From: a virus
Virus genome (UHGV): UHGV-0132465
Strand: one strand, 5' to 3'
DNA length: 64,000 nucleotides
Below the pieces are notes generated by a model. That model searched no databases and was not told where the DNA came from. It saw only the letters and a program-made list of their open reading frames with translations. Position numbers and translations under genes: made by a program. Of this stretch, positions 42,624 through 55,726 are shown piece after piece; positions within the stretch are counted from its first letter, which is position 1, and each line of letters opens with the position of its first letter.

Positions 42624-43208
42624 GTCTGCTCTTCTCCTACCATAAACGGCCCTACCTGGCAAGTGGAATAATTGACTAGCCATCAATCCCACACACTGTA
42701 TAAATATACATGGAAAATAACTATTGCATAATTTTTCATTGTGTGGTAGCAAGGCCATTTTTACCCGTTTTCTCTCCCAAAATTGCACGTAATGCCGCTA
42801 TTGCACAAAATTTAACCTGATGCACATCTTCAACATCTTGTCAATAACTAAAAATCTTTATAAGTCATACACTTACACAACCATAAAGCCGTGTTCTACG
42901 TGAAAAATCGAGTATAACTATAGCCGCCAGATCTCAGAATTTACGTACGTTCACCATTCTATAGCCTGCAAAGTATTTATTCCAACCACAGAATAACGGA
43001 ATAGTCAATACCTGCATAAAATAATTATTCGTGTAAACTGCATAACATAAATCAGCTCAGGTGTCAACATTTTTCGTAAGCAGTTCGAAATTGTCACGAT
43101 AAGTTATTATACACAAAGAAATCTTTAGTCGTCTAATGGTTACTATACATTACTAATCTGACTGGAATCATTAGATGACTAAGAGAAAGATAAGAAATAA
43201 TTAATAAT

Positions 43209-43518
43209 GTAATTGTTTTACCTGTAACAATAAGGCAACTATGCAAACGAATGGCATGGCGCGACGGAGTCGCGACATAATATAAAAGCAGTAACCATCA
43301 CCCCCGTGATAGTTTTTCTGCAATCTATTACTCAGATCATAGTTGCCTTGTATTTAGTTAATCATGACATAACAAGCAAGGCAACTATAGATCTTCTAAT
43401 AGTTGCCCTGCTTTTATATTATGTCATAGAAACGCCCGAAGGGGTGACCTAGTCACCTGGCATAGCCAGCGAAAGATTATTATCTTGTTAATTGTTTTCA
43501 TGCAAACGAATGTCATGG
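43209..43518. repeat. cluster of palindromes and iteron-like repeats (AAGGCAACTAT / ATAGTTGCC x4; GCAAACGAATGNCATGGC x2; GGTGAC-cta-GTCACC)
   Basis: multiple direct and inverted copies within 300 bp of an ORF-poor region between convergent gene blocks. Confidence 0.6.
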
Positions 43519-44268
43519 CTTATCATCTATGCGTGAACTATCCAGGCGTAAACAGTCTATGCGGGAACAATCTATACGGGAACAGTGAGGCATGCAATAG
43601 TAACAACTGTTATTGTATCCGGTGTGTTGAGTATGCCCGGTGTGTCACTATTATGTCACATTATGTCAGACAAGTTTTTCTCCTCTTTGTCAAGTGCTGC
43701 ATGAAAAATTTACAAACTGGTATGGTAGCATTTTTGCGGCCCTGTTTACATTCAGAAATGTATGTATAATCCTTGGTGTGTGGGCGTTTAGACGTCTGGA
43801 CGGTCAGAAGTCCGCAGGTCAATATCTAATCTATTGGTTGCTAACTATATCCCACACAAATAGTAAGAAATATAATTGTTATGTGCGTAAACAGTAACCC
43901 ATGTTATCAATCCCTGTATGTATCGCCAGTGGTGCGCATAATGGGTATTATGTTAAATTGCCCGTAATGATAACTATTCTCACAATGATAGGTATTCTCA
44001 TTCATCCCCACAAGATAGATTGCAAATGTTGTGCCACTGTGTGAACGGCCTGGTCTATTAATTTGCCTCACTGCCTCGATATTTGAGAATTATTATAAAA
44101 ATGAGAAGTATTCCCATTCCGTCCGCCTGGCAGCACTCCTGTAGGACAAGCACAAAATCGGGGCATAACTGACCTGTTCAGATATTTCTGGCTGACTCTT
44201 CAGGTCTGTGTGGGAAAAGCCAACCTCTCCGGCGGCGGGGTAGGGGTCAATTAAAAAATTTATGCGGT

Positions 44269-44325
44269 GTATGAAACCCTCTTCAGGCAAGGTGTGTATT
44301 ATGGTATGAAACCCTCTTCAGGCAA
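44269..44325. repeat. exact 22-bp direct repeat GTATGAAACCCTCTTCAGGCAA x2, 35 bp apart
   Basis: perfect duplication; flanked by related G-rich motifs at 44226-44250 and 44371-44396. Confidence 0.7.
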
Positions 44326-45084
44326 TGATATTTGTGGGTGTGATATTTGCTGGAAAGCCAGATATGACGGGACTCCCGGCGGGGCAGGGGTAGTACAGAC
44401 AGGGAAAATGTGGGGATGTAGTTGGGGAAATTGATCAGACAGGTAGAGTATGGAATATGTTATGAATATGTTAAATATGGAGGGTGAATATCTGTAGGAT
44501 TTGTGTGTAAAATCAAAGACTTAAGTGGTGTTGTGGTATTTTCTATAAATAATTCAAGTTTAATAGGTAATATTTGTCTCTATCCACTTTGTGTGGTAAA
44601 CAGATTTAGATGAAATTGGTTTACAAGTGTATACATAATATACAAATTAAAGATACAAGAAACCCCCCTCCCCCTTCGGCTACCATTCACCTTTTCCTCT
44701 GACTGGTACTTAAACACTTATTCAGACTCTTCAGGTTATCACCCATATACTATATGGCAGTGACTGGTGTCCTCCGGCCCCTCTTTCGTCACCCGTCCGC
44801 TTCGCCAAGCTAATGCCATAGCCAAATGTTCGGTTGTTCACCCTGTTCACTCAGGTGTATCTCCATACCCCTTCAAACCGAAGAGAACAGAAAACCCGAA
44901 TTACTCGGTAAAAGAAAAGAGAAGAACTTAATTTTATCAAGATAGGCAAGAATGTCAAGGGATGACTGCTCACTAAACAAGCAAACAGTCATGTGTGGTA
45001 GGTAAGTGATTGTAGTGGTGGAAAATTTAGTTGAAAGATGTGTTATAGTGCTCCCAGCACTTTAGCCGGGCAGCTAATTGTGTG

Positions 45085-49085: not shown

Positions 49086-49481
49086 TTACTGAAATAGTGC
49101 AGATAAATTACCTTCTGGTGGGAACTTATCTGCCAGGAATGGGGTTAGAACAGTGGCCTTCTGAATATCAGGGGTCCACTCATTGTTCAGAACATCCCAG
49201 TAGTACGCAATGTTACTGTGTGGGTGCCGCATTACGAACTTTTTCCCTTCGTAGTCAGTTGAAACCTCTACAGAAGAAATAACAACAGAGTCTTCAAGGG
49301 TTTCTTCATAGAAAGATCCACCCTCAAATTTCCAACGAGATGCAAGAGCTCCTGCCTTGAACGCTGCAGATAACGGACTGTCTGCAAGAACATACATTTC
49401 TTGCACTCTGTCACTGCGATCTTTGCTTCTTACATTGTATACAGTATCCGAGCTATACTCAACACGGTATAGACTTACCAT
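49086..49481 (-). CDS. hypothetical protein (131 aa), paralogue of 51288-51686
   Basis: shared FV(M/I)(R/V)HP.S...(Y/H)YW(D/N)....(E/K)WTP motif. Confidence 0.55.
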   Translation of the reverse strand: MVSLYRVEYSSDTVYNVRSKDRSDRVQEMYVLADSPLSAAFKAGALASRWKFEGGSFYEETLEDSVVISSVEVSTDYEGKKFVMRHPHSNIAYYWDVLNNEWTPDIQKATVLTPFLADKFPPEGNLSALFQ

Positions 49482-49813
49482 TACCTAACCTCCTCAATAA
49501 CTTCCACATCTGAACCCACCACAAATGCAAAAGGGCAGGTTTCATGAAAGATATCCGGATCTCCACCAAGCTTGCTAACTATCTCTCCACCACTAATAAA
49601 CACAAGCTCACCAATATTCATCAGATTGCTAAAATAGTAGCCATAATGATTGAAGAATGCAGCTGGGTCAGGTAGACTGGTGGCCTCAAGCTCTACATTG
49701 CTTGAGATCACTTTCTTATCATACCCTCTCGCCTTTTGAGATGCAAGATCTGCAGAGTCTTCAGGAGACCGGAGATGCACAGGAATTGTTTCACCAATAA
49801 AGCGTACTTTCAT
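49481..49813 (-). CDS. small acidic protein (about 110 aa), MKV family
   Basis: start moved to MKVRFIGE after GGGGTGAG RBS; ends EVIEEVR. Confidence 0.5.
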   Translation of the reverse strand: MKVRFIGETIPVHLRSPEDSADLASQKARGYDKKVISSNVELEATSLPDPAAFFNHYGYYFSNLMNIGELVFISGGEIVSKLGGDPDIFHETCPFAFVVGSDVEVIEEVR

Positions 49814-49817
49814 ATTC

Positions 49818-50081
49818 TCACCCCACAATCATAGCTTCAAAAGGTGTCATAAACGAATAAACAGCATCATCATCTGCTTCAGGGAATGCCCCCAAAGACT
49901 TTATGTCTGATCCCTTGACAAATACAAGGTTTTGATCAAAAGCTTCTTGGGGATCAATCCGATACATATCTCGTAGGATATTGCTTACCTCCTCATCAAG
50001 AGGTGAGTATGCTGTGCACGTTTTTCCAATCAAGCTTTGAGAATCAGGGTATCCACCTGAAGTTTTAAAATAAACAATCAT
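49818..50081 (-). CDS. hypothetical protein (87 aa)
   Basis: ORF in compact block. Confidence 0.45.
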   Translation of the reverse strand: MIVYFKTSGGYPDSQSLIGKTCTAYSPLDEEVSNILRDMYRIDPQEAFDQNLVFVKGSDIKSLGAFPEADDDAVYSFMTPFEAMIVG

Positions 50082-50172
50082 ATAGTATCACCTCTGGCAA
50101 GAGATGGGGATTCCTTTCCCACAAATAATTACAAACCTTCCTTATCGAGGAAGCATGCTAATCCAAGCAGGA

Positions 50173-50442
50173 TTATTCCTCTACAATCTCATACACATCA
50201 GGAGTTACAATCAACTCTTCTCCGTTACCCGGTGCAACAAACACCACCAAGCCTTCAGGTGTGTGCTTTTTAGCCATCTCGATAACATCTTCTCGCAGAG
50301 CTGGCTCCATCAGATCAAAGCCTTCACCCAGGGCATCACGAACCACCTTCATATAGTCCACTGGTTGTGCTTCAACAATCATGCCTTCAACCAGTCCACA
50401 GTTTTTGTCTGCCAGCTCAGTTTTGAATAATTTAATTTTCAT
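50173..50442 (-). CDS. small acidic protein (89 aa), MKIK family
   Basis: MKIKLFKTEL start, YEIVEE end. Confidence 0.5.
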   Translation of the reverse strand: MKIKLFKTELADKNCGLVEGMIVEAQPVDYMKVVRDALGEGFDLMEPALREDVIEMAKKHTPEGLVVFVAPGNGEELIVTPDVYEIVEE

Positions 50443-50468
50443 TTAGAGGTCTCCTCAATTATTTGATA

Positions 50469-50570
50469 TTAATAGCCGTAACCTAACACATTAACTACAA
50501 CTACGATTGCAAACATAATTTCAAAGCATGCAATCTCTACATTTGGGACTAATTTCTTAATCATACCCAT
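50469..50570 (-). CDS. small hydrophobic peptide (33 aa)
   Basis: ATG after GGAGAATGAGGTG RBS; single hydrophobic helix. Confidence 0.3.
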   Translation of the reverse strand: MGMIKKLVPNVEIACFEIMFAIVVVVNVLGYGY

Positions 50571-50579
50571 TGTAGCACC

Positions 50580-50897
50580 TCATTCTCCAAAGTCAATCTT
50601 TACTTTGCCTTTCCCCTTACCTTTCTTTCCACCACATTTAGCCAACTGACGTGCTGCAACATCTACCATACGGTCAGTTGCCTCGTAAGCATCACTGCCT
50701 TTAGCTTTGGCAATAACTTCTTTTCCGGAAGTGTCAAAAATGAACGCCATAACTTCCTGGTGATCATTTTCAACTTTTACACTCACACGTGCATAGTTGG
50801 CAGAGGGGTGCAAACGCTCCAGCTTAGACATTTTGTGGGAAATGAAAGACACCATACCTTCAGTGATTTCTACGTTGCCAGTGATTTCAATTTGCAT
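50580..50897 (-). CDS. hpf: ribosome hibernation promoting factor / RaiA (YfiA)-family protein with Lys/Gly-rich tail
   Basis: MQIEITGNVEIT...KLERL...A.VSVKVE N terminus and ...ATD...DVAARQL.K matching E. coli HPF by eye; extra C-terminal GGKKGKGKGKVK tail. Confidence 0.8.
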   Translation of the reverse strand: MQIEITGNVEITEGMVSFISHKMSKLERLHPSANYARVSVKVENDHQEVMAFIFDTSGKEVIAKAKGSDAYEATDRMVDVAARQLAKCGGKKGKGKGKVKIDFGE

Positions 50898-50979
50898 AAC
50901 GTGTTCCTTTTAAAGAAGAGGGAACCAAACCCTCTTTGAAAACAATGATACTAAATCTGAAGCGTTGTGTCAACAGTTT

Positions 50980-51270
50980 TTACAGCTTGTCGTCGATAGT
51001 TTTTAAAATATCCACAGCAAGATCTGCCATTTTTCGAACATACTCTGCAAACTCAACAGGATCCTTGATCAAAGAATTCACAGGGTCGTACCCTAGAGCG
51101 TTCAAAATGGCTGCAGCATCTACAACCTTCTCATCATTTGCGAAGATCTCTCCATCAAACTTGTAGGTCCATTTTGAGTCAATCTTGGCAGAGAAGGATT
51201 GGTCAACGCTTGTTACACCATCCTTTTTAAACTCTCCAGTGTTATCAGTGTCCAGAACTAAATCCATCAT
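50980..51270 (-). CDS. hypothetical protein (96 aa)
   Basis: ORF in co-oriented compact block. Confidence 0.5.
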   Translation of the reverse strand: MMDLVLDTDNTGEFKKDGVTSVDQSFSAKIDSKWTYKFDGEIFANDEKVVDAAAILNALGYDPVNSLIKDPVEFAEYVRKMADLAVDILKTIDDKL

Positions 51271-51287
51271 GTTAGTACCTCACTGTT

Positions 51288-51686
51288 TCAGTCTAGCTTT
51301 TCTTCAACAACCCCATAACTTGGGGCAGAGTCAAGAGCTTTCTGGTTTAAAAGTGGCGTAGCAGAATCTGCAAACGGTGTCCAAGTTTTTGTTCTGGCAT
51401 TCCAGTAATGCTTCACTCTGGAATCTGGATGCACTATAACAAAAACTTTTTCACTTGTCAACACATTAATTTCTTCTACACCCTTGCTGATAATTTCTCC
51501 GTCATAGCCACCAGTCTGGTATCCTTCGTACCAGGTTCTTGCATATGCATAGCCAGCCTGCCAGCATGCAGCCTCCTCCGAGGTGGAGACTACGTAGAAG
51601 TCTTTCTCAAATTCTGGGATACGCCCTTGCTTTACGCTCCAAGACCCGCGAATTTTCATTGTAACTTTGAACAGTTTATTTTTCAC
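51288..51686 (-). CDS. hypothetical protein (132 aa), paralogue of 49086-49481
   Basis: shared motif with 49086-49481. Confidence 0.55.
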   Translation of the reverse strand: MKNKLFKVTMKIRGSWSVKQGRIPEFEKDFYVVSTSEEAACWQAGYAYARTWYEGYQTGGYDGEIISKGVEEINVLTSEKVFVIVHPDSRVKHYWNARTKTWTPFADSATPLLNQKALDSAPSYGVVEEKLD

Positions 51687-51698
51687 AACGGTTACCCC

Positions 51699-51953
51699 TC
51701 ACAGCTCTACAATCTCTGCATCTGACCCTGCCCCAAAGGCATAATAGGATTCTTCCCCGAAATAATATTCCGGTGCACCAGCAGCGATCAGGTCTGATCC
51801 CAAGATAAACACCACGTTGTGGCCTACATAACTGTGATGTTGCCGCACAGGATCATCCCACGGCAACCCTTCAAAGTATACCGCAGGAACGACCTTTCCA
51901 TTCAGGAAGGATTGTCCCAAGTAGACGTTAGAATCAAGAATTTTAACCTTCAT
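51699..51953 (-). CDS. small protein (84 aa), MKVK family
   Basis: MKVKILDSNVYLGQ ... SDLIAAGA ... EIVEL. Confidence 0.55.
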   Translation of the reverse strand: MKVKILDSNVYLGQSFLNGKVVPAVYFEGLPWDDPVRQHHSYVGHNVVFILGSDLIAAGAPEYYFGEESYYAFGAGSDAEIVEL

Positions 51954-52170
51954 TCTCGTCCTCCACTATCTCTACATCCTCACCAAGGGCAAAGTTGTAG
52001 GTCCACTGACTGTCAAAGCAGTCCTGAGATGCACCAGCGGCAATAAGATCTGCACCTTTTATTTTTAAAAGGTCAGGATAATCTTCGTTAGGGATAGCGG
52101 TAAACACTTTCCCCACTAAGGGCTCCTGACCAATATAGAAGCTTGAATCTAAAACTTTAACTTTCATCAA
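51943..52170 (-). CDS. small protein (75 aa), MKVK family
   Basis: MMKVKVLDSSFYIGQ ... ADLIAAGA ... EIVED; tandem to 51699-51953. Confidence 0.55.
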   Translation of the reverse strand: MMKVKVLDSSFYIGQEPLVGKVFTAIPNEDYPDLLKIKGADLIAAGASQDCFDSQWTYNFALGEDVEIVEDENEG

Positions 52171-54950: not shown

Positions 54951-55496
54951 TTAAATTGTACACTGCAGGTGGTTGCCGAGGGTGTCAAGAAAATTATCCC
55001 GTTCTTTCTCAGAGTTTTCATGGGTGTAGCTGAAAAACATATCTAGAATAACCTTATTGATATATTCCAGCTCCTCTGTGTTCAGGTACTTAGCAGGATC
55101 TACAATGACATCCCAAATATCATACAAACCGCACTCATGATACCCCCAACGCCGCTCAATTGTCAAACTGAGCGGCAAATCTTTACCATCACAAACAACC
55201 TTCCATCTGCAGATGTTGGTATCTGGACGTACCTGTGTACGGTATACCTGTACAAAATCCAATTTGAATTGGAGGTACTCGTCATACAATTTAAGTACAA
55301 AACTCTCGATTTGTGGAGATACTTTTGCAGCAAACTGTGCGTATTTGTACTTGCACTGGATGATCTTTCTGCGTTTTGCAGTTAAATTTTTTGCAGCCAG
55401 TTGTTCTTCAGTGTACCTCCACCTACGATCAACAAACGCAACAGGGTCTTTGTCCCCATAGAGGTCTTCCCAGTTAATCAGAAGCATACCTGCCAC
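54951..55496 (-). CDS. hypothetical protein (181 aa)
   Basis: ORF in co-oriented compact block. Confidence 0.5.
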   Translation of the reverse strand: MAGMLLINWEDLYGDKDPVAFVDRRWRYTEEQLAAKNLTAKRRKIIQCKYKYAQFAAKVSPQIESFVLKLYDEYLQFKLDFVQVYRTQVRPDTNICRWKVVCDGKDLPLSLTIERRWGYHECGLYDIWDVIVDPAKYLNTEELEYINKVILDMFFSYTHENSEKERDNFLDTLGNHLQCTI

Positions 55497-55726
55497 TCCT
55501 CCACAACTTCAAGGCCTTTGCCGCCTCGTTCTGGTAGATTACTTAAAGACAGGTAATACGTATAGTCAGGAGAGATCCTGCCAGACTCTGCACCTGCAGC
55601 TAGTAAATCTTTTCCCTTAACCATGACAACATTATCGTTTGCAGATAGCCGTTTTGCTTCCACAATTTTACCAACGCAGTCAACCAAGGAAGGGTACCCT
55701 AAATCTGTAAGAAATTTAACTTTCAT
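55478..55726 (-). CDS. small protein (82 aa), MKVK family
   Basis: MKVKFLTDLGYP ... KDLLAAGA motif. Confidence 0.55.
   Translation of the reverse strand: MKVKFLTDLGYPSLVDCVGKIVEAKRLSANDNVVMVKGKDLLAAGAESGRISPDYTYYLSLSNLPERGGKGLEVVEEWQVCF

Follow-up and report, generated by a model that had tools for sequence, protein, structure and literature searches.

A conserved homologue of ribosome hibernation factors with a lysine/glycine-rich tail in Vequintavirus phages

The window, i.e. the whole stretch of 64,000 nucleotides of the UHGV virus genome UHGV-0132465 that was analyzed, contains on its minus strand a small gene whose product had been described in an earlier note as a homologue of the ribosome hibernation factors. 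The gene and the elements associated with it are as follows:

50580..50897, minus strand: coding sequence of the HPF homologue, with an ATG start and 105 codons plus TGA (open reading frame list and sequence)
50905..50909, minus strand: Shine-Dalgarno sequence AAGGA, 7 nt upstream of the ATG of the HPF homologue (sequence)
50631..50897, minus strand: HPF/YfiA (Ribosomal_S30AE) domain, residues 1-89, as assigned by Pfam, the AlphaFold2 model and Foldseek
50583..50630, minus strand: lysine/glycine-rich tail, residues 90-105, GKKGKGKGKVKIDFGE, predicted to be disordered and naturally variable in its distal part
50945..50973, minus strand: putative sigma-70-type promoter TTGACA-17-TATCAT, matching 11 of 12 consensus positions in a promoter scan and equivalent to P144 of the rV5 record
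50569..50596, minus strand: promoter-like site TTGACT-16-TACAAT with an extended TG, matching 10 of 12 positions in the promoter scan (a consensus match only)

The open reading frame proposed in the earlier note, which gave no strand, is real at exactly these coordinates and lies on the minus strand, with its ATG, 105 amino acids, TGA and Shine-Dalgarno sequence, and it is translated to MQIEITGNVEITEGMVSFISHKMSKLERLHPSANYARVSVKVENDHQEVMAFIFDTSGKEVIAKAKGSDAYEATDRMVDVAARQLAKCGGKKGKGKGKVKIDFGE. The start codon is fixed by the N-terminus of the product, in which MQIEITG pairs residue for residue with the MQLNITG of Escherichia coli HPF. The window belongs to a Vequintavirus (rV5-like) phage: a 4-kb segment around the gene found counterparts in 121 phage records, with 90-97% identity at the nucleotide level, every one of them from an rV5-like myovirus of this genus, and the best nucleotide match is phage NHEP1 (96.6%).

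The gene, its family and its distribution are already known from GenBank and from Mizuno et al. 2019. In the rV5 GenBank record of 2006 (DQ832317) it appears as ORF144 (ABI79209), named 'sigma 54 modulation factor' and preceded by the annotated sigma-70 promoter P144; in later records the names HPF, RaiA and 'ribosome hibernation factor' are used. Mizuno et al. (2019, Nat Commun 10:752, PMC6375957) listed ABI79209 of rV5 and its relatives as phage-encoded HPFs, reported expression in E. coli, and discussed competition with the cellular HPF as a possible role. Literature searches for later experimental work on the Vequintavirus HPF recovered none. The rV5 gene is the same gene as the one described here, its product being 99% identical with a single substitution (T56N), and the 'ribosome hibernation factor' of the BASEL phage EduardKellenberger (Bas59, QXV77844) is 100% identical; the length, tail, position and upstream promoter of these are all as in the window, with no difference of substance.

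Membership of the HPF/RaiA family over the whole core, as claimed in the earlier note, is supported by both sequence profiles and predicted structure. The search with the Pfam Ribosomal_S30AE profile, which that note had suggested as a check, returned PF02482 with 48.2 bits against a cut-off of 23.7 (E=1.9e-12), aligning residues 3-88 with profile positions 1-83 of 88, and TIGR00741 was matched with 46.7 bits against a cut-off of 40.9. The best sequence matches in the PDB are E. coli HPF entries, recovered over residues 1-89 with E-values of 7e-12 to about 1e-11. An AlphaFold2 model of the protein (mean pLDDT 83.7; 86-95 in the core, 79 in the block of residues 81-90 and below 50 in residues 91-105) displays the predicted succession beta1(2-7)-alpha1(13-29)-beta2(33-42)-beta3(47-55)-beta4(60-67)-alpha2(70-89). 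Foldseek superimposed this model on Vibrio cholerae HPF (4HEI) and ribosome-bound E. coli HPF (6H4N) with an rmsd of 1.1-1.2 Å and on the NMR structure of the E. coli protein (2RQL) with one of 1.5 Å, and all 35 top Foldseek matches in the PDB were HPF/YfiA/pY proteins. Profile and model alike place the phage protein within the HPF/YfiA (Ribosomal_S30AE) family. PF02482 is its sole Pfam domain: it shares the N-terminal S30AE domain with the long HPFs of Firmicutes, Actinobacteria and others, but the C-terminal dimerisation domain of the latter was not found in the 105-aa protein.

Within the family its affinities, as judged from sequence, lie nearer the short HPFs than YfiA, because it is 40% identical to E. 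coli HPF as against 22% to YfiA, and scores 55 bits with the short-HPF equivalog profile (NF007780/PRK10470) as against 18.7 bits with that of RaiA/YfiA (NF007654/PRK10324); both scores are below the respective equivalog cut-offs of 125 and 158 bits. The name 'RaiA' given to the phage protein in RefSeq is a generic family label only. The E. coli short HPF (YhbH, P0AFX0; 2RQL, 4V8H, 6H4N) shares its fold (rmsd 1.2-1.5 Å), is colinear with it over residues 1-89, and has the MQ(I/L)xITG, DxY..A.D and RQL.K motifs as well as a basic C-terminal tail in common with it. Unlike the E. coli protein, the phage version has V80, G89 and L30, and its tail is longer by 10 residues, Gly-rich and predicted to be disordered. 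With E. coli YfiA/RaiA (protein Y, P0AD49) it shares the family, the fold and the presence of a C-terminal extension beyond alpha2. The YfiA extension is disordered on the ribosome and points to the RMF site, and the phage tail is likewise predicted to be disordered; however, the tail of YfiA is the longer of the two and has an acidic end (NFVEEVEEE), whereas that of the phage protein is Lys/Gly-rich.

A comparison with residues known to be important in the family shows both retention and loss. The family-invariant K22, G58, D69 and Y71 are all retained. Cryo-EM structures place the ribosome contacts of HPF at positions 80, 83, 87, 89, 91 and 93, at D75 and at residue 30 (bioRxiv 10.1101/2025.10.07.680626), and an alignment against this list indicates that about half of the contacts are kept: D75, R83, K87 and K91 are present in the phage protein, while K80 is changed to V, K89 to G, Y30 to L and K93 to G, the last being flanked by K92 and K94.

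The lysine/glycine-rich string quoted in the earlier note as C-terminal, GGKKGKGKGKVK, corresponds to residues 89-100 and is followed by IDFGE; it thus lies in the C-terminal region without forming the extreme C-terminus. The accompanying claim that such a tail is missing from E. coli HPF is right as to length and glycine content, but the E. coli protein has a basic tail of its own. Bacterial short HPFs typically end in a basic continuation of alpha2 (e.g. KHKDKLKQH, KHREKIKGH and KYKEKLTDHK), and the tail counted from K87 comprises 19 residues in the phage protein against 9 in E. coli HPF (KHKDKLKQH), with a net charge of +5 against +3. The charges of the two cores are similar (-3 and -4 respectively). 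The Lys/Gly tail is a longer, predicted-disordered elaboration of the basic tail common in the family.

Natural variants of the tail, found in phages APCEc02, Murica and S127 and in one Logan assembly, are truncated or frameshifted. The APCEc02 protein has 101 aa and ends in ...KCGRKKGKGERQSKD, and the independent Logan assembly has the same tail; the Murica protein has 99 aa (...GKGKAK) and that of S127 BCL3 has 103 aa (...KIDF). The KKGKG of the tail is kept within Vequintavirus, and a 64%-identical orthologue carries another basic tail, KYSKSKGIDKRTAKWDY. Because of these distal variants and the differing tail of the orthologue, the conserved property would appear to be a flexible basic extension and not a specific sequence. 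The distal tail, which overlaps the promoter-like site, seems to be dispensable. The -35 hexamer of that site (50569..50596) coincides with the tail codons I101-D102-F103, and its counterpart in the divergent relative L009, TTTACA-17-TACACT, lies just past the HPF stop codon. Given this overlap, and the position of the L009 site after the stop, constraint at the DNA level may contribute to the conservation of the distal tail.

Other phage-encoded members of the family offer a further comparison. Xanthomonas jumbo phage XaC1 (gp256) and Cronobacter phage GAP32 (AFC21633) resemble the present case in that their S30AE proteins are encoded by large virulent myoviruses. Their genes are independent acquisitions, and the GAP32 protein was placed with Firmicutes sequences in the phylogeny of Mizuno et al. 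2019 (PMC6375957). In contrast to the Vequintavirus protein, XaC1 gp256 has 129 aa and an acidic, YfiA-like tail devoid of the Lys/Gly repeat. Convergence of independent phage HPFs on Lys/Gly tails was considered and rejected on account of this acidic tail. S30AE matches in Listeria and faecal 'phage' sequences are long HPFs on short unverified contigs.

Taken at face value, resemblance to the short HPFs would be compatible with a canonical hibernation or protection factor that acts with the host RMF, building up or stabilizing 100S particles or hibernating 70S ribosomes and shielding rRNA from nucleases in starved or stationary cells until a burst becomes possible. The protein is matched best by short HPFs, namely those of E. 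coli and V. cholerae, and like these it ends in a basic C-terminal tail. Against such a role stand the shortfall of its 55 bits from the 125-bit HPF equivalog cut-off, the loss of K80 and K89, and a tail that is longer and Gly-rich, where short HPFs have a helical KxKxK one. The expression data discussed below bear on it in both directions, as the E. coli cells used contained both RMF and their own HPF but showed no discernible change in 100S particles on expression (PMC6375957). Taken together, these points make a canonical role possible though unlikely.

The gene is carried by all rV5-like phages of E. coli. Its product is 95-100% identical in 118 phage records, the 119th match being to a Salmonella genome at 40%, and the gene is fixed in Vequintavirus phages. 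With phmmer, run exhaustively against 1.84 billion cluster representatives, just 27 proteins were recovered at E <= 0.001: one relative of 65% identity, the others being bacterial HPFs of 27-44% identity with E-values of 4e-7 or worse, with the exception of a multi-repeat protein of 1160 aa (E=1.3e-8). When 5.8 billion proteins were searched by a word index, the only matches were the phage cluster and a single relative of 64% identity, with no bacterial protein among them. Because of the 40% identity to the host gene and the remoteness of the phmmer matches, recent capture from a host seems unlikely, and the protein probably either was acquired long ago or belongs to a lineage that evolves fast. 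Purifying selection on it is strong, with a core dN/dS of 0.04-0.13 in pairwise Nei-Gojobori comparisons of Vequintavirus orthologues. Synteny is kept in the divergent L009, where identity is 70% for the HPF core and only 44-59% for the genes on either side. Being homologous to a host gene and lying within a block of small accessory genes, the HPF gene might also be seen as a functionless passenger recently captured from the host; however, the low dN/dS, the fixation of the gene across Vequintavirus records, its syntenic and well-conserved presence in the divergent relative and an identity to the host gene too low for recent capture already appear effectively to refute this. As a separate observation on the database records, 18 UNVERIFIED 'Campylobacter phage' entries (MG0656xx, e.g. 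L008) contain genomes of Vequintavirus, with an HPF that shares 96-99% identity with its counterparts in E. coli phages; the naming of Campylobacter as host is probably a mistake, or else the preparations were mixtures.

The gene lies within a long co-directional block, with nucleotide reductases, PhoH, a ClpP-like protease and a methyltransferase encoded upstream and about 20 small hypothetical genes downstream. The sequence block AAACTGTTGACAC, which comprises the -35 region of the upstream promoter, is conserved upstream of the 64%-identical L009 orthologue, and from the form of this promoter we infer that the gene would be transcribed early by the host RNA polymerase. The promoter-like site at 50569..50596 may in turn drive the small genes downstream. 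A search for translation-related partners nearby found no tRNAs in the window, the eight flanking open reading frames gave no Pfam match, and every protein encoded around the HPF gene is labeled hypothetical in the curated annotation of the BASEL phages. A 7-bp hairpin between the promoter and the ribosome-binding site (50916-50936, minus strand; AAGAGGG/CCCTCTT followed by CTTT) was rejected as a candidate element, as its folding energy is no better than that of shuffled sequences (z = -0.47) and it is absent from L009.

Some features of the neighborhood deserve mention in their own right. The adjacent gene at 50173..50442 (minus strand, 89 aa), which is called 'sigma 54 modulation factor' in many records, was rejected as a paralogue, as it has no Pfam or S30AE match; its label appears to be an annotation that was shifted in APCEc02 and then copied. 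The true HPF gene is labeled 'ATP-dependent protease La type I' in several records of bovine and O177 phages. Immediately downstream, starting 9 nt past the HPF stop, an open reading frame at 50469-50570 (minus strand) encodes a strongly hydrophobic product of 33 aa, MGMIKKLVPNVEIACFEIMFAIVVVVNVLGYGY; it corresponds to rV5 ORF145, is not present in L009, and its ATG overlaps the -10 element that belongs to the promoter-like site at 50569..50596. Paralogous families of small genes flank the HPF gene on the minus strand, at 49086-52170 and 55478-55726, all without Pfam matches: the frames 51699-51953 and 51943-52170 share 42% identity and have relatives at 49481-49828 and 55478-55726, and the frames 49086-49481 and 51288-51686 are 32% identical. 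Farther away, a region of about 2.4 kb (42650-45050) devoid of credible open reading frames separates divergently oriented blocks of small genes and matches both the rV5 annotation 'no observable ORFs 104013-106618' and a gap in the annotation of Bas59. Short repeats in inverted and direct orientation cluster there (ATAGTTGCC; a perfect inverted repeat of 18 nt, GACATAATATAAAAGCAG, at 43274/43408), and a sequence of 22 nt recurs exactly in direct orientation at 44269 and 44304. The region may represent an origin, a regulatory element or a stretch of non-coding RNA.

The functional question turns to a large extent on the published expression experiment, which was re-read here together with its supplementary data. 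Mizuno et al. cultured E. coli NM522 (pBAD24-HPF) in the presence of arabinose until the OD600 reached 1, pelleted ribosomes through 500 mM NH4Cl and 1.1 M sucrose, separated them on gradients and analyzed the 70S and 100S fractions by mass spectrometry (PMC6375957). For the viral HPF no peptides were detected in the 70S/100S fractions and four in the crude extract, and its expression had no discernible effect on 100S; growth phase and the salt wash were given by the authors themselves as possible causes of the negative result (PMC6375957). The negative binding result is uninformative because the procedure also missed the authentic host HPF: the supplement (Supplementary Data 2-5, PMC6375957) records host HPF and RMF in the crude extract, and host HPF in none of the three samples of washed ribosomes. 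Hence the published negative, which was obtained with the 99%-identical rV5 protein and corresponds to the outcome that the earlier note had named as refuting (no association with ribosomes on expression), has no power, and ribosome binding is not refuted by it. The observation of 'no effect on 100S' is likewise weak, the cells having been collected as exponential growth ended, a stage at which few 100S particles are present.

The same data have to be set against the view that ribosome binding has been lost and the S30AE fold turned to some other target, such as a different RNA or one of the host's proteins, while the tail would act as a general nucleic-acid anchor. Such a loss would be in line with the viral HPF going undetected on ribosomes though abundant in the extract (PMC6375957), with the change of several contact residues, and with a divergence that leaves just 40% identity to E. 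coli HPF and 27-44% to the bacterial matches among the 1.84 billion representatives. However, an assay that failed to see even the host HPF lends the first of these points no weight, the invariant residues maintained by purifying selection are the ribosome-binding signature of the family, and neither domain content nor gene context suggests any other partner. Loss of binding is accordingly rated as distinctly improbable.

Expression of the viral protein was well tolerated, with continuous production permitting growth to an OD600 of 1 and normal ribosome profiles (PMC6375957). This bears on the proposal in the earlier note that a phage HPF could silence ribosomes during takeover, which in its strongest form would make the protein a host shut-off factor, that is to say a potent early inhibitor of translation blocking the A and P sites. 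HPF and YfiA do occlude these sites, and the promoter is of a strong early type; yet phage mRNAs would be blocked equally, and E. coli with pBAD24-driven expression overnight and to an OD600 of 1 grew with a normal 70S profile (PMC6375957). Because the expressing cells grew in this manner, a strong silencing or shut-off role is argued against, and we regard it as very improbable.

A further detail of the supplement concerns the host YfiA (PMC6375957). YfiA was detected on washed ribosomes in the bS21 sample (1 spectrum) and the bL12 sample (6 spectra), yet it is not among the 71 proteins on the ribosomes of cells expressing the viral HPF, despite its presence in their crude extract. This difference matches competition for a shared site, although with single samples and counts of 1, 6 and 0 spectra it may be noise. 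Under one interpretation it would reflect an anti-hibernation decoy, i.e. a weak, salt-labile occupant of the HPF/YfiA site which evicts the YfiA and HPF of the host, blocks the RMF pocket with its flexible Lys/Gly tail and prevents formation of 100S particles. If this were true, ribosomes would stay available to the phage under infection stress or in the face of dormancy-inducing defenses that raise RMF. The sole hint for it is the missing YfiA on the washed ribosomes of cells with viral HPF (PMC6375957 supplement), and as an account of the protein it is unlikely, if conceivable.

The reading that is tentatively preferred, with a probability of about 0.45, is that the phage protein acts as a YfiA-like competitor at the HPF/YfiA site of vacant ribosomes, keeping idle 70S particles re-usable and disfavoring 100S formation. 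Structural work, including bioRxiv 10.1101/2025.10.07.680626, indicates that the C-terminus of HPF contacts uS7 and the E-site tRNA, and that the tail of YfiA heads to the RMF site. In this reading, the phage HPF would be made early in infection by the host RNA polymerase and would bind the HPF/YfiA site of vacant ribosomes, with its core probably attaching more weakly and in a more salt-labile manner because the changes of K80 to V and K89 to G remove basic contacts. The flexible Lys/Gly tail could compensate for this by non-specific contacts with rRNA phosphates. It would exit alpha2 at the point from which the C-terminus of HPF reaches uS7 and the E site and the longer tail of YfiA runs towards the RMF pocket; given that geometry, YfiA-like behavior would be expected of a tail 10 residues longer than that of E. 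coli HPF. By replacing host HPF or YfiA at the shared site, the phage protein would disfavor the RMF-dependent formation of 100S particles, so that idle ribosomes might stay as intact and quickly re-usable 70S, being neither locked in host hibernation nor degraded. Any role in blocking RMF would have to be independent of a specific tail sequence, because the distal tail is truncated or different in natural relatives.

What is added here to earlier knowledge of this gene is modest: the published negative binding result is without power, the protein is a strongly constrained and diverged version of the short-HPF type, probably old and not recently captured, and its tail is an elaboration of one already present in the family. 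If its activity were established, it would provide a clear case of a virulent phage with its own regulator of host ribosome hibernation, and would be of relevance both to the infection of starved or dormant bacteria by phages and to defenses that act through translational dormancy.
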